Source of the DNA: a virus | Lineage: Duplodnaviria > Heunggongvirae > Uroviricota > Caudoviricetes | DNA: 9,517 nt | IMG/VR virus record: IMGVR_UViG_2537562091_000001 | Strand: one strand, 5' to 3' | Shown here: positions 1 to 9,517 of the stretch, piece by piece | How positions within the stretch are numbered: the stretch's first letter is position 1 | Layout: each line of letters begins with the position of its first letter | Program-made: the position numbers and the translations under genes | Notes under the pieces: model-generated | What the model was told of the DNA's origin: nothing | The model's database searches: none | Seen by the model: the letters and a program-made list of their open reading frames with translations, nothing else

Positions 1-206
1 GTCTTCCGTAGCCTGTCATACGCGTAAAACAGCCAGCGCTGGCGCGATTTAGCCCCGACATAGCCCCACTGTTCGTCCATTTCCGCGCAGACGATGACGT
101 CACTGCCCGGCTGTATGCGCGAGGTTACCGACTGCGGCCTGAGTTTTTTAAGTGACGTAAAATCGTGTTGAGGCCAACGCCCATAATGCGGGCTGTTGCC
201 CGGCAT
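1..206 (-). CDS. insB: IS1 InsB, 5' portion only (truncated by the window boundary)
   Basis: Minus-strand frame starting at the ATG at 206-204 reads [49 protein letters not shown]..., the IS1 InsB N-terminus; it overlaps the insA 3' end as in IS1. Confidence 0.8.
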
Positions 207-400
207 CCAACGCCATTCATGGCCATATCAATGATTTTCTGGTGCGTACCGGGTTGAGAAGCGGTGTAAGTGAACTGCAGTTGCCATGTTTTACGGCAGT
301 GAGAGCAGAGATAGCGCTGATGTCCGGCGGTGCTTTTGCCGTTACGCACCACCCCGTCAGTAGCTGAACAGGAGGGACAGCTGATAGAAACAGAAGCCAC
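125..400 (-). CDS. insA: IS1 InsA (transposition inhibitor / N-terminal part of InsAB' transposase), 91 aa
   Basis: ORF translation [39 protein letters not shown]...LKNSGRSR matches IS1 InsA as recalled; it lies inside the IS1 element at the expected distance from the inverted repeat. Confidence 0.93.
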
Positions 401-735
401 TGGAGCACCTCAAAAACACCATCATACACTAAATCAGTAAGTTGGCAGCATCACCGTATTGGGGTAGTAAATGAGCTATACAATCTTAATCATTTGTTAG
501 GTGAGAACTCTTGGTCGCAGATTCAAATACTGAAAATACGTGACAAATTATTATGAGCAAAATGGTGTATGTCACGTATTTTGAATGGTAGGTTAAAAAA
601 TAACACCGACTTTCGTAGGTATTACTAATAATAAAGCAGAGTTTTTAGATAGTATCAATGTGCTTTGTGTATATTGTGGCAAATAATTGAGTTGGGGGTA
701 CAATTGTGATTGCTTTTGCATGAACATTGCGCCTT

Positions 736-752
736 TATGCATAATGAGATAA
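736..752 (+). promoter_or_regulatory. Candidate extended -10 sigma70 promoter (TGcATAAT) upstream of ybcL
   Basis: tatgcataat at 736-745 gives a TGn plus CATAAT extended -10 about 55 bp upstream of the ybcL ATG; a plausible -35 is weak. Sequence inspection only. Confidence 0.25.
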
Positions 753-798
753 AGGAATATCAAATAAAATAACGATAGGTCATAACAAAGAGGTTTTT

Positions 799-1350
799 AT
801 GAAAACACTTATCGTTTCAACTGTATTGGCATTCATAACATTTTCTGCGCAGGCTGCAGCATTTCAGGTCACTAGTAATGAAATAAAAACAGGAGAGCAA
901 CTTACAACGTCTCATGTCTTTTCTGGATTTGGGTGTGAAGGTGGTAATACATCGCCCTCATTAACCTGGTCTGGTGTTCCTGAAGGTACCAAAAGCTTTG
1001 CCGTAACTGTATATGATCCAGATGCACCTACAGGCAGTGGTTGGTGGCATTGGACTGTTGTTAATATTCCAGCAACAGTAACATATTTGCCCGTTGATGC
1101 AGGGAGACGTGATGGAACAAAACTGCCGACTGGTGCTGTTCAAGGCCGAAATGATTTTGGCTATGCTGGGTTTGGTGGCGCATGTCCTCCTAAAGGAGAT
1201 AAACCACATCATTACCAGTTTAAAGTATGGGCTCTAAAAACTGAAAAGATTCCTGTAGATTCTAACTCCAGCGGAGCGTTAGTTGGTTATATGCTTAATG
1301 CTAATAAAATCGCAACCGCTGAGATAACACCAGTTTATGAGATAAAGTAG
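799..1350 (+). CDS. ybcL: Periplasmic PEBP/RKIP-family protein (UPF0098), DLP12 YbcL-like, 183 aa
   Basis: ATG at 799 preceded by aagagg; N-terminal signal peptide MKTLIVSTVLAFITFSAQA/AAFQ; translation matches YbcL as recalled. The gene is AT-rich compared with the lambda-like genes. Confidence 0.88.
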   Translation: MKTLIVSTVLAFITFSAQAAAFQVTSNEIKTGEQLTTSHVFSGFGCEGGNTSPSLTWSGVPEGTKSFAVTVYDPDAPTGSGWWHWTVVNIPATVTYLPVDAGRRDGTKLPTGAVQGRNDFGYAGFGGACPPKGDKPHHYQFKVWALKTEKIPVDSNSSGALVGYMLNANKIATAEITPVYEIK

Positions 1351-1359
1351 GGTGAGAGT

Positions 1360-2157
1360 ATGCTGGCAAGAGGTAAGACTAACTTAAAGATCGAAGAAAT
1401 ACGGATGCATAAACATCATGAGATTCATAGGGTTAAGCCTCTTATGCCAGCTTTGTGTCGTATCCGTCAGGGAAAGAAAGTTATCAATTGGGAGACGCAT
1501 ACTTTAACTGTTGATAATAATCAAATAATATTATTTCCTTGTGGTTATGAATTTTATATTGAGAATTATCCTGAAGCAGGGCTTTATCTTGCAGAAATGC
1601 TTTACTTACCCATTGATTTAATTGAGAGTTTCCAAAAACTTTATACGGTAACTGATCAAATACGTAACAAAACAAGTTTCTTTTTACCTCAGAATCCTGA
1701 GTTAATATATTGTTGGGAGCAACTAAAAACATCTGTTTCCCGAGGCTTCTCAACTAAAATTCAGGAGCACTTAGCAATGGGCGTTCTACTTTCGTTAGGA
1801 GTGAATCATGTTAATCATTTACTTTTATCATATAGTAAACAATCATTGATAAGTCGTTGTTATAACCTGCTGCTATCCGAACCCGGCACAAAATGGACAG
1901 CAAACAAGGTTGCTCGATATCTCTACATTTCTGTTTCTACATTACATCGCCGTCTAGCAAGCGAGGGGGTAAGTTTCCAAAGTATACTGGACGATGTGAG
2001 GTTAAATAATGCGTTGTCTGCTATACAAACGACGGTAAAACCTATAAGCGAGATTGCCAGAGAAAATGGTTATAAGTGTCCTTCTCGTTTTACTGAAAGA
2101 TTTCATAATCGTTTTAATATAACACCAAGAGAGATAAGAAAAGCTTCCAGAGAGTAA
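1360..2157 (+). CDS. ybcM: AraC/XylS-family transcriptional regulator, DLP12 YbcM-like, 265 aa
   Basis: Long ORF with a C-terminal AraC-type helix-turn-helix region ([46 protein letters not shown]...[19 protein letters not shown]); it starts 10 bp after the ybcL stop and is very AT-rich. Confidence 0.85.
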
Positions 2158-2221
2158 AAGTGTTTTAAGAAGGAGCAATTCTATCGATTTTGATTTTGGG
2201 AAATCAACACGGCATAATTAT

Positions 2222-2250
2222 GTCACCGGAGCCTGAACAACTCCGGTGAC
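2222..2250 (+). terminator. Perfect 10-bp inverted repeat (gtcaccggag / ctccggtgac, 9-nt loop) between ybcM and ybcN; possible weak terminator or protein-binding site
   Basis: The stem-loop is seen directly. It lies 65 bp after the ybcM stop, but the downstream T-tract is poor (ttctg), so a terminator role is uncertain. Confidence 0.3.
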
Positions 2251-2371
2251 TTCTGCGCTAAACGGGGACGTTTATGCGCACATACAATCCAAACTCTCTT
2301 CTCCCTTCACAGATGCAGAAATGCACCTGCAATTCTTTGCATCTAGCGTTTGACCTCTGCGGAGGTGAAGC

Positions 2372-2827
2372 GTGAACCTCTCACAAGACGGCATCAAATT
2401 ACATCGCGGCAACTTCACCGCTATCGGTCGGCAGATCCAGCCTTATCTGGAGGAGGGCAAATGCTTTCGCATGGTGCTTAAACCGTGGCGTGAGAAACGC
2501 AGTCTTTCCCAGAATGCACTCAGCCACATGTGGTACAGCGAAATCAGTGAATACCTCATCAGCAGGGGTAAAACGTTCGCCACTCCAGCTTGGGTAAAAG
2601 ATGCTCTCAAACACACATATCTCGGTTATGAAACCAAAGACCTGGTTGATGTCGTAACCGGTGATATCACCACTATCCAGTCGTTACGCCATACCTCCGA
2701 CCTTGATACCGGAGAGATGTATGTCTTCCTGTGTAAGGTTGAAGCCTGGGCGATGAATATTGGCTGCCACCTGACTATTCCGCAGAGCTGCGAGTTCCAG
2801 CTGCTGCGTGATAAGCAGGAGGCGTAA
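2372..2827 (+). CDS. ybcN: Phage nin-region protein YbcN (DNA base-flipping protein family), 151 aa, GTG start
   Basis: GTG at 2372 preceded by ggagg at 2361-2365; translation [21 protein letters not shown]... matches DLP12 YbcN as recalled; it sits at the start of the nin-like block. Confidence 0.85.
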
Positions 2828-2997
2828 TGGCTACACCGCTTATTCGTGTCATGAACGGACACATCTACAAAGTACCAAATCGTCGTAAGCGTAAGCCTGA
2901 GCTGAAACCATCCGAAATACCAACACTGCTCGGATATACCGCCAGCCTGGTTGATAAAAAATGGTTGCGACTGGCAGCTAGGAGGAATCATGGCTGA
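2827..2997 (+). CDS. ninE: NinE-family protein, 56 aa
   Basis: Short [59 protein letters not shown]; its start overlaps the ybcN stop (TAATG) and its end overlaps the ybcO start. This is the expected position of ninE in DLP12; it is absent from the ORF track because it is under 60 aa. Confidence 0.75.
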   Translation: MATPLIRVMNGHIYKVPNRRKRKPELKPSEIPTLLGYTASLVDKKWLRLAARRNHG

Positions 2998-3280
2998 TTT
3001 GAGAAAAGCAGCGCGTGGTCGGGAATGCCAGGTAAGAATCCCTGGCGTATGTAATGGCAATCCTGAAACGTCTGTACTGGCACATATCCGGCTGGCTGGA
3101 TTGTGCGGTACCGGTATCAAACCGCCAGACCTGATTGCCACCATTGCATGTTCTGCCTGTCACGACGAGATCGACCGTCGCACGCATTTTGTTGACGCTG
3201 GATATGCAAAAGAATGCGCGCTGGAAGGTATGGCGAGAACGCAGGTTATCTGGCTGAAAGAGGGGGTAATTAAGGCGTGA
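2990..3280 (+). CDS. ybcO: Cys-rich DUF1364-type putative nuclease YbcO, 96 aa
   Basis: ATG at 2990 preceded by a strong AGGAGG at 2980-2985; translation [23 protein letters not shown]...CSACHDE...; the track ORF from 2951 is an upstream TTG extension. Confidence 0.85.
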
Positions 3281-3639
3281 ATACCTACAATATCACATTA
3301 CCCTGGCCGCCGAGCAATAATCGCTATTACCGCCATAATCGCGGGCGCACGCACATCAGCGCAGAGGGGCAGGCATACCGCGAAAACGTCGCCCGAATCA
3401 TTAAAAACGCAATGCTGGATATCGGCCTGGCTATGCCTGTGAAAATCCGCATTGAGTGCCACATGCCGGATCGCCGTCGCCGTGACCTGGATAATCTGCA
3501 AAAAGCCGCTTTTGACGCACTCACTAAAGCAGGTTTCTGGCTGGATGATGCTCAGGTCGTTGATTACCGCGTTGTGAAGATGCCTGTTACCAAAGGTGGG
3601 AGGCTGGAACTGACCATCACCGAAATGGGGAATGAATGA
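3277..3639 (+). CDS. rusA: RusA Holliday-junction resolvase (cryptic prophage endonuclease), 120 aa, GTG start
   Basis: Translation [24 protein letters not shown]... contains the catalytic acidic residues D70, D72 and D91 ([10 protein letters not shown]...WLDDAQ); the start overlaps the ybcO stop (GTGA). Confidence 0.92.
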
Positions 3640-3776
3640 TGTTTGAGTTTAATATGGCAGAACTTCTTCGCCACCGCTGGATGCGCCTGCGCTTATATCG
3701 TTTCCCCAGTTCTGTTTTGACCGATTACCGAATACTGAGGAATTACGCCAAAACCCTGACAGGAGCAGGAGTATGA
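3636..3776 (+). CDS. ylcG: Small nin-region protein YlcG, 46 aa
   Basis: ATG at 3636 overlaps the rusA stop (ATGA); translation [46 protein letters not shown]; same position as ylcG in DLP12. Confidence 0.7.
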
Positions 3777-3861
3777 AGTCAGAGATAACAATCAACTAAT
3801 ACTGTTTTATTGATTTTTGCTTGTAATTGGCGTTCTGGTCTGATTTTTGTGGAGTAAGTTG

Positions 3862-4245
3862 ATGCGTGATATTCAGATGGTTCTTGAGCGTTGGGGAGCG
3901 TGGGCGGCTAATAATCATGAAGATGTGACCTGGTCGTCCATTGCCGCCGGTTTTAAGGGATTAATTACTTCAAAAGTAAAATCTCGCCCGCAATGTTGTG
4001 ACGATGACGCGATGATCATTTGCGGGTGCATGGCCCGTCTGAAAAAGAACAACAGCGATTTGCACGATTTATTAGTAGATTATTATGTAGTCGGTATGAC
4101 ATTCATGTCACTGGCAGGTAAGCATTGCTGCTCTGATGGTTATATCGGGAAAAGGTTACAGAAGGCTGAGGGCATAATTGAAGGGATGTTAATGGCATTA
4201 GATATCCGGTTAGAGATGGATATCGTTGTTAATAACTCTAATTAA
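3862..4245 (+). CDS. quuD: Late-gene antiterminator Q (phage 21/82-type), DLP12 QuuD, 127 aa
   Basis: ATG at 3862 preceded by ggag at 3851-3854; translation [24 protein letters not shown]... matches QuuD as recalled; the track start at 3847 is a TTG extension. It is the last gene of the nin-like block, as Q is in lambdoid phages. Confidence 0.88.
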
Positions 4246-4261
4246 TATGCCAATTGTTTAC

Positions 4262-4297
4262 TAAAAATTATTAAAAATGGGGCGTTGAGACGCCCCC
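4262..4297 (-). terminator. Rho-independent terminator on the minus strand (stem ggggcgt/acgcccc with tgag loop at 4279-4296, then a U-rich tract from 4278 to 4262)
   Basis: Minus-strand RNA would read GGGGGCGUCUCAACGCCCC followed by AUUUUUAAUAAUUUUU, a textbook intrinsic terminator. It lies about 140 bp downstream of the nmpC stop and at the predicted 3' end of the IpeX-like RNA. Confidence 0.7.
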
Positions 4298-4434
4298 AAA
4301 AATAAAGGGTAATATATAACAGAAGGTTTATATAGTTAGAAGCAAGGTTGTGCTTCTAAAGGAAGTGGCTTGAGGGAGCCACTTATATGTTGGGGAGGCA
4401 AAGCCTCCCGCAACATATCTTTTTCGTAATCAGA
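4268..4434 (-). ncRNA. ipeX: Candidate IpeX-like small RNA in the nmpC 3' region (multi-hairpin RNA ending at the terminator above); boundaries approximate
   Basis: Four consecutive stem-loops on one strand (4385-4418, 4363-4384, 4338-4357, 4279-4297) between the nmpC stop and the terminator U-tract. IpeX is a roughly 167-nt sRNA described at this position in DLP12; ends are not mapped here. Confidence 0.4.
4385..4426 (+). terminator. Long imperfect hairpin (atatgttggggaggc-aaa-gcctcccgcaacatat) followed by cttttt; candidate plus-strand terminator just before nmpC in antisense
   Basis: About 15-bp stem with a single bulge, followed by a T5 run on the plus strand. It could terminate rightward transcription leaving quuD, or it could simply be the 5' stem of the IpeX-like RNA. 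Confidence 0.35.
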
Positions 4435-5517
4435 TTAGAACTGATACACCAGACCTACAGCGACGATGTCGTCGGTATCAATACCAGCTGTTTTGGTAAA
4501 CTTACTATCGTCAATTAAGTTGATTTTGTAATCAACAAAAGTGGACATGTTTTTATTAAAGTAGTAAGTAGCACCGACATCGACATACTTGACTAAGTCT
4601 CGGTCACCATGAACACCAAGGTCTTTACCTTTTGACTGAAGGTAAGCAACAGATGGTCGCAGACCGAAGTCAAACTGATATTGTGCTACTGCTTCAAAGT
4701 TTTGTGCTTTGTTTGCAATATGGTTATTACCAAAAACGGTCATATTCTGAGTTTCAGAATATGTGGTAGCCAGATAGATATTGTTCGCATCATATTTCAG
4801 GCCTGCAGCCCATACTTCCGCATTTTTGCCGGAGGCATTGAATTTGCTCTTACCATAGGCGACCTGACCGTCAGTGCGATCTGATTTAGCATAGGTTGCA
4901 CCCACGCCGAATCCTTCATACTCATAAGTAGTGGAGAAACCGAAACCATCACCATTGGCTTCAGTTACGTCAGTGCGGTCATTTTTACCCTGATACTGAG
5001 CAGCAAAGTTCAGGCCATCGACCAGACCAAAGAAGTCGTTGTTACGATAGGTTGCAACACCAGTGGTGCGACCAGTCATGAACACATCTGTTTGGGTCCA
5101 GGTATCGCCACCGAATTCTGGCAGAACGTCAGTCCACGCACCGATGTCGTATGCTACACCGTAGTTACGGCCGTAATCGATTGAGCCGTAGTCACCGAAT
5201 TTCAGGCCTGCAAATGCAAGACGGGTTTTGTCTTTGGAGGAACCTTGAGATTCAGCGCGGTTGCCTTTGAATTCATATTCCCACTGACCGAAACCAGTCA
5301 GTTGATCGTTGATTTGGGTTTCACCTTTGAAGCCAAGACGGGCATAAGTAGTATCACCATCATCTGCATCGTTAGAGGAAAAGTAGTGCTTGGCATTAAC
5401 TTTCCCGTACAGATCCAGCTTGTTACTGTCTTTATTATAAATTTCAGCTGCCTGAGCAGACATCGCCATCAGTACTGATGCAGCTACAGCAGAAATTGCC
5501 ACTGTTAATTTTTTCAT
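4435..5517 (-). CDS. nmpC: Outer-membrane general porin of the OmpC/PhoE/NmpC family, intact, 360 aa
   Basis: Signal peptide [29 protein letters not shown]; porin-like beta-barrel sequence ending in the C-terminal VGLVYQF with terminal Phe; uninterrupted frame on the strand opposite to the surrounding phage genes. Confidence 0.9.
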
Positions 5518-6105
5518 CGTGAGCCCTTTTTTTTGAACTATTATTAAAAAATGATGTCACTGCGCGATAAATATTCATCTAATCAATGTGATTATTTCAA
5601 GATGTAAGTTTTAGTTTCTCATTTAATTTGTGAAGTAGATCTCTATTTTTATCTGAACTTTTTCTATCGAAACCTATTTATGGCTCTTATTTGAACAAAA
5701 ATAAACCTATTAGCTAATTTATATTAATGGCTGTTATTTATGGGGGTTCTATAATTCGGTGGTTTAATTTAAATCAACTAAAAATAACGCCGGAAATTAT
5801 TTATTGGTTATTTGTTGAGGTTTTCTTATATATTTGTGGTGGTGTTTTGAACACTCGGTAGCATTCTCATAAATATCATTCAGTGGTTTACGTACGTAAA
5901 AAATTGGTTATGCTGTTAAGAGTGGTTACTTCGTCACACAGCTTAAACCCGCCGTCGAGCTGGTTTTTCCATTTTTTGAGTCTCGATATTAGCTGATAAC
6001 TCAATACCTGAGTTATTCACTGACTCCGAGTCTGTTACGTTTCTGCTTTTTTGCGATACGTTGTATTCCCTCAATTTACACCCGCTTTGTCTGCGAGGTG
6101 GGGTT

Positions 6106-6321
6106 ATGAAATCCATGGATAAGTTAACAACGGGTGTCGCCTATGGCACCTCAGCAGGTAGTGCCGGTTACTGGTTTTTACAGCTGCTCGATAAAGTCAC
6201 GCCCTCACAGTGGGCAGCAATAGGTGTGCTGGGTAGCCTGGTATTTGGCCTGCTGACGTACCTGACAAACCTTTATTTCAAGATTAAAGAAGATAAGCGC
6301 AAGGCTGCGAGAGGTGAATAA
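6106..6321 (+). CDS. essD: Phage-21-type class II holin (pinholin S21-like) with dual-start motif, 71 aa
   Basis: ATG at 6106 preceded by gaggtg at 6095-6100; translation [26 protein letters not shown]...[19 protein letters not shown] resembles S21 as recalled; Met1 and Met4 form the holin/antiholin dual start; the track start at 6061 is a TTG extension. Confidence 0.88.
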
Positions 6322-6818
6322 TGCCTCCATCATTACGAAAAGCCGTTGCTGCTGCTATTGGTGGCGGAGCAATTGCTATAGCATCAGTGTTAATCACTGG
6401 CCCAAGTGGTAACGATGGTCTGGAAGGTGTCAGCTACATACCATACAAAGATATTGTTGGTGTATGGACTGTATGTCACGGGCATACAGGAAAAGACATC
6501 ATGCTCGGTAAAACGTATACCAAAGCAGAATGCAAAGCCCTCCTGAATAAAGACCTTGCCACGGTCGCCAGACAAATTAACCCGTACATAAAAGTTGATA
6601 TACCGGAAACAACGCGCGGCGCTCTTTACTCGTTCGTTTACAACGTGGGCGCTGGCAATTTCAGAACATCGACGCTTCTTCGCAAAATAAACCAGGGCGA
6701 TATCAAAGGCGCATGTGATCAGCTACGTCGCTGGACATATGCTGGCGGTAAGCAATGGAAAGGTCTCATGACTCGTCGTGAGATTGAGCGTGAAATCTGT
6801 TTGTGGGGTCAGCAATGA
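6321..6818 (+). CDS. rrrD: SAR endolysin (T4-lysozyme-type muramidase with N-terminal signal-anchor-release domain), 165 aa
   Basis: Start overlaps the essD stop (TAATG); Gly/Ala-rich weakly hydrophobic N-terminus [20 protein letters not shown] typical of SAR domains; E35 and D44 catalytic residues present; matches R21/RrrD as recalled. Confidence 0.9.
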
Positions 6819-7276
6819 ACAGAGTAACCGCGATTATCTCCGCTCTGGTTATCTGCATCATCGTCTGCCTGTCATGGGCTGTTAATCATTACCGTGATAA
6901 CGCCATTACCTACAAAGCCCAGCGCGACAAAAATGCCAGAGAACTGAAGCTGGCGAACGCGGCAATTACTGACATGCAGATGCGCCAGCGTGATGTTGCT
7001 GCACTGGATGAAAAATACACGAAGGAGTTAGCTAATGCGAAAGCTGAAAATGATGCTCTGCGTGATGATGTTGCCGCTGGTCGTCGTCGGTTGCACATCA
7101 AAGCAGTCTGTCAGTCAGTGCGTGAAGCCACCACCGCCTCCGGCGTGGATAATGCAGCCTCCCCCCGACTGGCAGACACCGCTGAACGGGATTATTTCAC
7201 CCTCAGAGAGAGGCTGATCACTATGCAAAAACAACTGGAAGGAACCCAGAAGTATATTAATGAGCAGTGCAGATAG
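6815..7276 (+). CDS. rzpD: Spanin inner-membrane subunit Rz (i-spanin), 153 aa
   Basis: ATG at 6815 overlaps the rrrD stop (ATGA); N-terminal transmembrane helix [18 protein letters not shown] followed by a coiled-coil-like region; nearly identical to lambda Rz as recalled. Confidence 0.9.
7035..7217 (+). CDS. rzoD: Spanin outer-membrane lipoprotein subunit Rz1 (o-spanin), embedded in the +1 frame of Rz, 60 aa
   Basis: ATG at 7035 preceded by aaggag at 7022-7027; lipobox VVGC followed by a Pro-rich mature region ([16 protein letters not shown]); lies entirely within rzpD, as Rz1 does within Rz in lambda. Confidence 0.88.
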
Positions 7277-7280
7277 AGCT

Positions 7281-7296
7281 GCCCATATCGATGGGC
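7281..7296. terminator. Short GC-rich hairpin (gcccat-atcg-atgggc) between the convergent rzpD and borD genes; possible weak bidirectional terminator
   Basis: 6-bp stem seen between the two stop codons at 7276 and 7308; no clear U-tract on either strand. Confidence 0.25.
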
Positions 7297-7307
7297 AACT
7301 CATGCAA

Positions 7308-7601
7308 TTATTGTGAGCAATACACACGCGCTTCCAGCGGAGTATAAATGCCTAAAGTAATAAAACCGAGCAATCCATTTACGAATGTTTGCTGGGTTTC
7401 TGTTTTAACAACATTTTCTGCGCCGCCACAAATTTTGGCTGCATCAACAGTTTTCTCCTGTCCAATTCCCGAAACGAAGAAGTGATGGGTGATGGTTTCC
7501 TTTGGTGTTACTGCTGTCGGTTTGTTTCCAACAGTAAACGTCTGTTGAGCACATCCTGTAATAAGCATTGCCAGAGCGGCAGAAAACAACATTTTTTTCA
7601 T
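7308..7601 (-). CDS. borD: Bor-family outer-membrane lipoprotein (serum-resistance protein homologue), 97 aa
   Basis: Start at the ATG giving MKKMLFSAALAMLITGCAQQ... (lipobox ITGC); near-identical to lambda Bor as recalled; the track ORF from 7649 is an N-terminal extension. Confidence 0.88.
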   Translation of the reverse strand: MKKMLFSAALAMLITGCAQQTFTVGNKPTAVTPKETITHHFFVSGIGQEKTVDAAKICGGAENVVKTETQQTFVNGLLGFITLGIYTPLEARVYCSQ

Positions 7602-7960
7602 CTTATTATCCTGCATTGTTAAAAACGGCAGAATCCTATGTGACAACAATTAAACGATAGTTAAATGGATTGATGAAAATTAAAACTATATAGGTGGATG
7701 CTCAGCCTATTGGAGGAGGGGGGCACTCAGAATCCTGTGGAATGAAATAAACCGCTCTTTCTGTCCATTACCCTTTTAGCTGCGCTGTATCGTCGCCGTA
7801 TTCCCGCATTAACCATGACCGTAGCCCGACGGGGAATTCCTTCTGCGTGAGTGTGCGGGAATAATCAAAAACGATGCACACCGGGTTTTACTGTGCTGAC
7901 AGACGCAGGGTTACCCTCATAGTCGCTTTTCCGGTGCGATGGTGGAAGAAACCGGGATGT

Positions 7961-8155
7961 TTATTCATCATCACTCTGGATTGATGTATATGCTCTCTTT
8001 TCTGACGTTAGTCTCCGACGGCAGGCTTCAATGACCCAGGCTGAGAAATTCCCAGACCCTTTTTGCTCAAGAGCGATGTTAATTTGTTCAATCATTTGGT
8101 TAGGAAAGCGGATGTTGCGGGTTGTTGTTCTGCGGGTTCTGTTCTTAGTTGACAT
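7961..8155 (-). CDS. ylcI: Small 64-aa protein with a predicted ribbon-helix-helix-like DNA-binding pattern; by position the ylcI (DUF3950) equivalent
   Basis: ORF MSTKNRTRRTTTRNIRFPNQMIEQINIALEQKGSGNFSAWVIEACRRRL...; a basic N-terminus, then a beta-strand-like RNIRFP followed by two helices, resembles Arc/CopG-type folds (inference). It sits between bor and cos, as ylcI does in DLP12. Confidence 0.55.
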   Translation of the reverse strand: MSTKNRTRRTTTRNIRFPNQMIEQINIALEQKGSGNFSAWVIEACRRRLTSEKRAYTSIQSDDE

Positions 8156-8319
8156 GAGGTTGCCCCGTATTCAGTGTCGCTGATTTGTATTGTCTGAAGT
8201 TGTTTTTACGTTAAGTTGATGCAGATCAATTAATACGATACCTGCGTCATAATTGATTATTTGACGTGGTTTGATGGCGTAGATGCACGTTGTGACATGT
8301 AGATGATAATTATTATCAT

Positions 8320-8543
8320 TTTGCGGGTCCTTTCCGGCGATCCGACAGGTTACGGGGCGGCGACCTCGCGGGTTTTCGCTATTTATGAAAATTTTCCGGT
8401 TTAAGGCATTTCCGTTCTTCTTCGTCGTAACTTAATGTTTTTATTTAAAATACCCCCTGAAAAGAAAGGAAACGACAGGTGCTGAAAACGAGCTTTTGGG
8501 CCTCTGTCGTTTCCTTTCTCTGTTTTTGGCCGTGGAATGAACA
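8320..8543. other. Lambda-type cos site: cosQ/nick region, cosN 12-nt cohesive-end sequence gggcggcgacct at 8355-8366, and cosB (terminase/IHF binding region) extending to the nohD start
   Basis: Sequence around 8321-8540 matches the joined right and left ends of lambda as recalled (tccgacaggttacg | gggcggcgacct | cgcgggttttcgctatttatgaaaattttccgg...), with a few substitutions; the Nu1-like ORF starts about 190 bp downstream, as in lambda. Confidence 0.85.
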
Positions 8544-9095
8544 ATGGAAGTCAACAAAAAGCAGCTGGCTGACATTTTCGGTGCGAGTATCCGTACCATT
8601 CAGAACTGGCAGGAACAGGGAATGCCCGTTCTGCGAGGCGGTGGCAAGGGTAATGAGGTGCTTTATGACTCTGCCGCCGTTATAAGATGGTATGCCGAAA
8701 GGGATGCTGAAATTGAGAACGAAAAGCTGCGCCGGGAAGTTGAAGAACTGCGGCAGGCCAGCGAGACAGATCTCCAGCCAGGGACTATTGAGTACGAACG
8801 CCATCGACTTACGCGTGCGCAGGCCGACGCACAGGAGCTGAAAAATGCCAGAGACTCCGCTGAAGTGGTGGAAACCGCATTCTGTACTTTCGTGCTGTCG
8901 CGGATCGCAGGTGAAATTGCCAGTATTCTCGACGGGATCCCCCTGTCGGTGCAGCGGCGTTTTCCGGAACTGGAAAACCGACATGTTGATTTCCTGAAAC
9001 GGGATATCATCAAAGCCATGAACAAAGCAGCCGCGCTGGATGAACTGATACCGGGGTTATGGGCGTTGGCCTCAACACGATTTTACGTCACTTAA
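8544..9095 (+). CDS. nohD: Terminase small subunit Nu1 homologue, C-terminally truncated: Nu1-like residues 1 to about 171, then 11 codons and a stop read from IS1 DNA (fusion ORF of 183 aa)
   Basis: Translation [46 protein letters not shown]... follows lambda Nu1 (winged-helix N-terminus) up to ...[10 protein letters not shown], then diverges into [11 protein letters not shown] encoded by IS1 sequence; no terminase large-subunit gene follows. Confidence 0.85.
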
Positions 9096-9517
9096 AAAAC
9101 TCAGGCCGCAGTCGGTAACCTCGCGCATACAGCCGGGCAGTGACGTCATCGTCTGCGCGGAAATGGACGAACAGTGGGGCTATGTCGGGGCTAAATCGCG
9201 CCAGCGCTGGCTGTTTTACGCGTATGACAGGCTACGGAAGACGGTTGTTGCGCACGTATTCGGTGAACGCACGATGGCGACGCTGGGGCGTCTTATGAGC
9301 CTGCTGTCACCCTTTGACGTGGTGATATGGATGACGGATGGCTGGCCGCTGTATGAATCCCGCCTGAAGGGAAAGCTGCACGTAATCAGCAAGCGATATA
9401 CGCAGCGAATTGAGCGGCAGTAACCTGAATCTGAGGCAGCACCTGGCACGGCTGGGACGGAAGTCGCTGTCGTTCTCAAAATCGGTGGAGCTGCATGACA
9501 AAGTCATCGGGCATTAT
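9059..9517 (+). mobile_element. IS1 fragment lacking its left end (IS1 coordinates about 283 to 743), joined directly to nohD; runs to the window end
   Basis: From 9059 the sequence matches internal IS1 (atgggcgttggcctcaacacgattttacgtcacttaaaaaactcaggccgc...), with no terminal inverted repeat at the junction; positions 9059 to about 9243 are the reverse complement of positions about 186 to 1. Confidence 0.9.
9061..9423 (+). pseudogene. insB: IS1 insB remnant: lacks the insA-insB 5' region and carries an apparent +1 frameshift near 9420 relative to canonical InsB
   Basis: InsB frame reads [17 protein letters not shown]...[10 protein letters not shown] then stops at 9421-9423, while the canonical InsB C-terminus [31 protein letters not shown] continues in the next frame (ggcagtaacc here versus ggcataacc as recalled). 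Confidence 0.6.

Follow-up and report, generated by a model that had tools for sequence, protein, structure and literature searches.

The window analysed here, a stretch of 9,517 nucleotides, covers the right half of a defective lambdoid prophage of the DLP12 type in Escherichia coli, with IS1 sequence at both of its ends (positions 1-455 inverted, 9057-9517 forward). The same sequence stands, without a difference, at positions 1458-10974 of locus L003 (scaffold GL872249.1, assembly GCA_000191015.1), where it forms a single contig between two runs of N, and both of its ends therefore lie within IS1 copies. The prophage segment proper (456..9056, plus strand) carries ybcL, ybcM, ybcN, ninE, ybcO, rusA, ylcG and quuD, followed by an intact nmpC/ompC-like porin gene, essD, rrrD, rzpD, bor/iss, ylcI and nohD. 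It matches the annotated locus of strain TUM17668 at 8,602 of 8,603 bases and BL21(DE3) at 99.4-99.95% identity over two aligned pieces. The porin gene (4435-5517, minus strand, 360 aa, annotated as ompC/porin) is intact in both the window and TUM17668, and is split by IS1 in BL21(DE3) and other B strains.

A second IS1 occupies the left end of the window and runs from its nt 455 to nt 1 (1..455, minus strand) with the left inverted repeat (IRL) abutting the prophage at 455/456; it provides context and stands apart from the junction event described below. Positions 1-186 and 9057-9242 both correspond to IS1 nt 270-455 and, being oppositely oriented, form a perfect inverted repeat of 186 bp; the entire 8.6-kb prophage segment could be inverted if the two IS1 copies underwent homologous recombination.

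A nohD reading frame that runs into IS1

At the right end of the prophage segment, nohD continues into IS1 as a chimeric ORF of 183 aa (8544..9095, plus strand), identified from the ORF list, its translation and a Pfam match (PF07471, Phage_Nu1) on the identical product. Residues 1-172 are those of a Nu1-type small terminase subunit, and the remaining 11 residues are read from IS1 in a frame that, by arithmetic on the sequence, is neither that of insA nor that of insB and that ends at a taa inside the IS1 frameshift motif. NohD retains 172 of its 181 residues, loses nine (LSEYIEQSG) and gains eleven encoded by IS1, while codon 172 changes from ttg to tta and specifies Leu either way. Homology to Nu1 over its full length, C-terminal region included, is absent, as it stops at nt 515 of 546 and the last nine residues are replaced. 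The identical 183-aa product is held in RefSeq as WP_000453613.1 (“DNA-packaging protein”) and under three GenBank accessions; that entry is a Nu1-IS1 chimera and no natural terminase variant.

The position of the joint within window 9040-9120 (...gatgaactgataccggggTTatgggcgttggcctcaacacg...) follows from alignments made from both sides. Phage Nu1 genes align to 8544-9058 and end there, the alignment of nohD from the TUM17668 DLP12 prophage likewise reaches 9058, and the IS1 alignment starts at 9057 (IS1 nt 270) and extends to the end of the window at 9517 (IS1 nt 729). The deletion joint is accordingly placed at 9057..9058 (without strand), a tt common to nohD nt 514-515 and IS1 nt 270-271, on the basis of a three-way alignment with the TUM17668 breakpoints and of the ends of the BLAST pieces. 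In this alignment the left side is perfect to nohD and the right side perfect to IS1, and beyond the tt the similarity of the flanks across the joint is at chance level on either side. The calculated probability that a random joint shares at least 2 bp is 1 - 0.5625 - 0.281 = ~0.16, so that a 2-bp microhomology is about what chance would give and carries no mechanistic weight.

Neither form of the IS1 terminal inverted repeat (GGTGATGCTGCCAACTTACTGAT or GGTAATGACTCCAACTTATTGAT) was found at the joint, and the IRL is absent from the right-hand copy; the closest IS1 end lies 269 nt from the joint in the reference element and is missing from the window. As the element has lost its left end, an 8-9-bp target duplication in the usual sense could not exist at this joint; its right end falls past the window, on the far side of a gap in the scaffold, and the flank of the right inverted repeat (IRR) there (CAATGCATT...) is unrelated to nohD. 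A preliminary description of this DNA had read the Nu1 frame as fused to the interior of IS1 and not to one of its ends, with only the tt at 9057-9058 in common and with no inverted repeat or target duplication, and had proposed an alignment against nu1 and IS1 to fix the breakpoint. The alignments given above bear out this reading and shift its breakpoint, which lies at IS1 nt 270-272 and not at about nt 283, a difference of some 12 nt. Since the joint is to the interior of IS1 and shows neither inverted repeat nor duplication, it comes from a secondary event and not from transposition; the earlier proposal of a secondary deletion or illegitimate recombination is supported, and related genomes show the undeleted state.

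To the right of the joint lies a 5'-truncated IS1 (9057..9517, plus strand; nt 270-729 of 768, by BLAST against the 768-bp IS1 of TUM17668), in which 460 of 460 aligned bases are identical to the TUM17668 element and a single g is extra. This remnant is without the IRL, the 5' part of insA and its promoter, and is cut on its 3' side by the contig end; it retains the 3' end of insA, the A6C frameshift site and most of insB, and an ORF within it (9163-9423) matches PF03400 (DDE_Tnp_IS1). Because of the extra g (9420..9420, plus strand; IS1 nt 633, GAGCGGCA-g-TAACC), the insB frame meets a stop at 9421-9423. This base, 98 nt before the contig ends, is private to the window contig, being missing from a Logan contig with the same junction (L007) and from the adjoining IS1 contig in the source scaffold, and it reflects an error of sequencing or assembly or else a private mutation. 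Beyond the right end of the window the source scaffold has 548 N and then a contig that begins at IS1 nt 340 and reaches the IRR. The IS1 overlap of these two right-hand contigs is identical except for the extra g, and the gap is likely to represent a single IS1 remnant with a wrong gap estimate.

A joint of this kind might have been created by an assembler that joined reads across a repeat, in which case the true molecule would hold an intact nohD and a normal IS1. The window contig does end in IS1 on both sides within a gapped scaffold, the 1-nt insertion 98 nt short of its end is suspicious, and its joint is absent from every complete RefSeq E. coli genome (0 of 5,426). The exact 183-aa fusion protein is, however, present in five independent assemblies, namely the NCBI drafts GCA_000191015.1 and GCA_004570285.1, the ENA metagenome assembly ERZ27272545 (contig k141_...) and the Logan assemblies of two public runs (SRR32288625 and ERR9669118). 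Each of the five carrier loci enters IS1 at nt 270 and has flanks that match the window at 99.9-100% identity. This comparison takes the place of the check for misassembly that had been proposed for the locus, and rules misassembly out: a joint identical to the base across different projects and assemblers is no assembler chimera, as a random chimera would not fall repeatedly at one and the same nucleotide, and we regard an artefact as exceedingly improbable. The joint can thus be taken as real and inherited, and a joint to the interior of a repeat near a contig end need not mean misassembly. Because no complete long-read genome has the junction, the DNA to the right of the truncated IS1 has never been read through. 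Searches with the exact 35-mer of the joint gave zero matches in GTDB species representatives (one genome per species) and in JGI metagenome contigs (environmental data), neither of which is informative for this question.

Precursor arrangement and order of events

The undeleted state was found in three complete genomes, TUM17668 (human, Japan), PK8276 (chicken, Pakistan) and QML220614 (yak, Tibet), the only ones among 5,426 to carry this arrangement as one contiguous match (99.9-100% identity); in four more, at least 80% of the query is covered, only as two joined pieces and at ~98% identity. In each of these three genomes nohD is complete (546 bp) and is followed by a stub of the gene for the large terminase subunit, made up of its first 875 bp, to which an entire IS1 of 768 bp is joined by its IRL. 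Beyond IS1 follow a truncated AHH/Rhs toxin gene, PAAR, DcrB-like and VgrG genes, which make up a T6SS/Rhs island, and then cusS. The flanks of this IS1 show no target duplication (...GATGCCCG vs TATTTGTTC...). As the rest of the terminase gene and the head and tail genes are missing in these genomes, they had been lost already, in association with IS1.

The window equals the TUM17668 arrangement minus exactly 1,151 bp (L001 11604-12754), with colinear flanks and, left of the joint, the single base difference in 8,603 already mentioned. The missing DNA comprises the final 31 nt of nohD, the terminase stub of 875 bp (in overlap with the end of nohD) and the left part of IS1 (nt 1-271, or nt 1-269, depending on the assignment of the common tt). 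Read from these alignments, deletion is the sole parsimonious direction of change. The comparison with related E. coli genomes suggested in the preliminary description has thus been made, and it alters part of the account given there: the 3' end of nohD (31 nt) was removed as stated, whereas of the large terminase, also listed as removed, it took only the 875-bp stub of an already truncated gene, and the morphogenesis genes were already gone. The claim that this event explains why the prophage is defective does not hold either, since the morphogenesis genes had been lost in the precursor type before the junction arose. The 1,151 bp removed is DNA that was already non-functional.

Over about 8.6 kb, the sole base difference between the window and TUM17668 is at position 606 (C/T), and the sole one between the window and GCA_004570285.1 is at position 695 (G/A). 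Both positions are in the ybcK-ybcL intergenic stretch, and at the prophage locus the junction carriers are very closely related to the precursor-type genomes. Within the deleted terminase stub, a 22-mer (L001 11933-11954) that lies 551 bp upstream of the left end of IS1 is identical to the IRL at 17 of 22 positions (77%; GGTGATGCCGAGAACTTTATGA vs GGTGATGCTGCCAACTTACTGA).

On the right, past the IRR of IS1, the source scaffold has 677 bp (L003 11952-12628) that are absent from TUM17668, PK8276 and QML220614. This stretch consists of a 177-aa ORF, placed where an Rhs immunity gene would be, together with the 3' end of an Rhs gene for an AHH toxin; in the three complete genomes the IRR stands directly inside the AHH gene (L001 13252), and the joint between the IRR and the 677 bp seen in the scaffold is in no complete genome. 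The right-side differences are independent IS1-adjacent deletions, with the three complete genomes carrying an end-anchored one of their own. TUM17668 was considered as the strict ancestor and rejected, because it has lost a further 677 bp at the right flank of IS1 relative to the source scaffold, and by the same difference none of the three precursor-type genomes is a strict ancestor.

On the left, the IS1 of the scaffold (L003 841-1912) has its IRR inside emrE and stands where TUM17668 has 2,100 bp (L001 901-3000) with the remainder of emrE together with ylcJ and ybcK; its flanks (CATTCTGGT vs GTATTGGGG) show no target duplication. This arrangement has the form of a typical end-anchored IS1 adjacent deletion. 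The element is split in the scaffold by a “gap” of 192 N, yet its two contigs overlap by 110 nt. In GCA_004570285.1 (L004) the nohD-IS1 joint is present, ylcJ and ybcK are kept and the left IS1 is absent, which makes the joint older than the event on the left.

These flanks bear on whether a simple 1,151-bp deletion is only an approximation of a more complex history, in which the truncated IS1 and the Rhs-side copy would be two different elements, or in which IS1-IS1 recombination or inversion with the left copy would have taken part. A 548-N gap followed by IS1 nt 340-768, a right flank of the Rhs-side IS1 that differs by 677 bp from three complete genomes, and the inverted orientation of the window's two IS1 pieces, with 186 identical bp in common, would all be consistent with such a history. 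The gap sizes of this scaffold are unreliable, however, as the left-hand “gap” of 192 N illustrates; the right-hand contigs are identical over their IS1 overlap apart from the extra g, and the order of the scaffold is the gene order of TUM17668. We consider a more complex history unlikely, and no such point would change the nature of the nohD-IS1 joint itself.

Origin of the joint

Based on these comparisons, we propose (with a probability of roughly 85%) that the joint is a real, vertically inherited deletion of 1,151 bp in a sublineage of E. coli, derived from a precursor with an IRL-joined IS1 and produced without the use of an IS1 end. In this precursor, the normal IRL of IS1 would have been joined to the DLP12 gene for the large terminase subunit at nt 875, with the rest of the terminase and the morphogenesis genes already gone and the T6SS/Rhs island beyond IS1. 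A later event in which no IS1 end took part would have joined nohD nt 513-515 to IS1 nt 270-272, deleting the 3' end of nohD, the terminase stub and the left end of IS1, and leaving the chimeric nohD ORF and a dead, one-ended IS1. The trigger may have been a break or replication error near the left end of IS1, possibly a transposase-made break at the IRL; nucleolytic resection may have followed on both sides, over ~880 bp on one and ~270 bp on the other, and the ends may then have been united by microhomology-poor end joining or by a template switch.

The most likely mechanism, as far as sequence can indicate, is illegitimate recombination independent of RecA and of transposase ends. This is the best-supported option given that the IS1 end is lost, that no cryptic end was found at the breakpoint and that no repeats bracket it; a search for direct or inverted repeats bracketing the breakpoints found none, and the repeats that were found are short and located elsewhere. 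All transposase-catalysed products of IS1 (simple insertions, cointegrates, adjacent deletions and inversions) are known to keep an IS1 end at the new joint.

An aberrant InsAB' reaction could in principle produce the same molecule, if a cryptic internal end near nt 270 together with the IRR attacked nohD and a replicative adjacent deletion left IS1(270-768) behind. The topology of such a product would be right, and both excised circles and adjacent deletions of the replicative type are known for IS1 (Turlan & Chandler 1995, cited in bioRxiv 10.1101/2023.06.07.543989). When every IS1 position on both strands was scored against the IRL and IRR, the best internal match was 14/23 at nt 292 to 270 (window 9057-9079, minus strand; CGTGTTGAGGCCAACGCCCATAA), a stretch that touches the breakpoint. 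This site is on the other strand, however, with its outer end at 292, and cleavage there would place the joint at 292 and not at 270; a match of 14/23 against either inverted repeat is also weak. A usable site would have to read rightwards from an outer end at 270-272, and in that orientation the positions from nt 268 to 273 score 6-9/23, which is the background mean, and a cryptic IS1 end at the breakpoint was accordingly rejected. The GG of the product's GGTTATG comes from nohD and not from IS1. We judge an aberrant transposase reaction very improbable, and the coincidence of the 14/23 site with the breakpoint, in the wrong orientation for a cryptic-end reaction, is probably no more than that.

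A more speculative idea is that IS1 nt 270-292 is a weak, inverted, IR-like site that InsA or InsAB' might bind, and that aberrant deletions provoked by the transposase would therefore break preferentially here and kill the element. In that case, independent truncations near nt 270 would be a recurrent feature of IS1-rich genomes. This conjecture seems to us more improbable still than the aberrant reaction itself. In the same preprint (bioRxiv 10.1101/2023.06.07.543989), the IEE system is described as tying microhomology-mediated joining to IS excision, and excision of IS1 is stimulated too. In the literature collection searched, no paper combines DLP12, IS1 and terminase deletions.

Comparison with known deletions and prophage decay

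The junction is an ordinary scar of prophage and IS decay, left by illegitimate deletion. It may be used as a clean, single-origin marker of one E. coli sublineage, and its significance beyond such bookkeeping is little. The locus as a whole presents stepwise decay of a prophage around one IS1, beginning with an insertion with loss of flanking DNA, continuing with several end-anchored adjacent deletions and ending with a deletion that killed the IS1 itself.

The last of these steps resembles the RecA-independent illegitimate deletions of E. coli, such as imprecise IS excision and the products of alternative end joining. As in those systems, a precursor with the intervening DNA exists, here in undeleted relatives with colinear flanks; the deletion is in the kilobase range, few bases or none are common at the joint (here the 2 bp tt, with no bracketing repeats), and neither a transposon end nor a site-specific recombination site is found there. 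The sole peculiarity of the present case is that one breakpoint falls inside IS1, so that the deleted segment spans the left end of the element.

In IS1-mediated adjacent deletions, which arise by intramolecular replicative transposition, flanking DNA next to IS1 is removed, as it is here. Genuine cases occur at this same locus, where IS1 ends stand on non-duplicated flanks in the terminase stub, in the Rhs/AHH gene and between emrE and ybcL. Such deletions begin exactly at an IS1 end and leave the element intact, whereas at the nohD joint IS1 loses 269-271 nt, including the IRL.

Finally, the DLP12 prophages of E. coli K-12 and B have the same gene order from ybcL to nohD, with the close identity to BL21(DE3) given above (99.4-99.95%), and the decay of the DLP12 morphogenesis region differs between lineages. 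In BL21 a small-terminase ORF of 191 aa is kept and is joined to fragments of tail genes, and the porin gene contains an IS1, in contrast to the lineage of the window, which has an intact porin gene, a nohD-IS1 chimera and a T6SS/Rhs island beyond.
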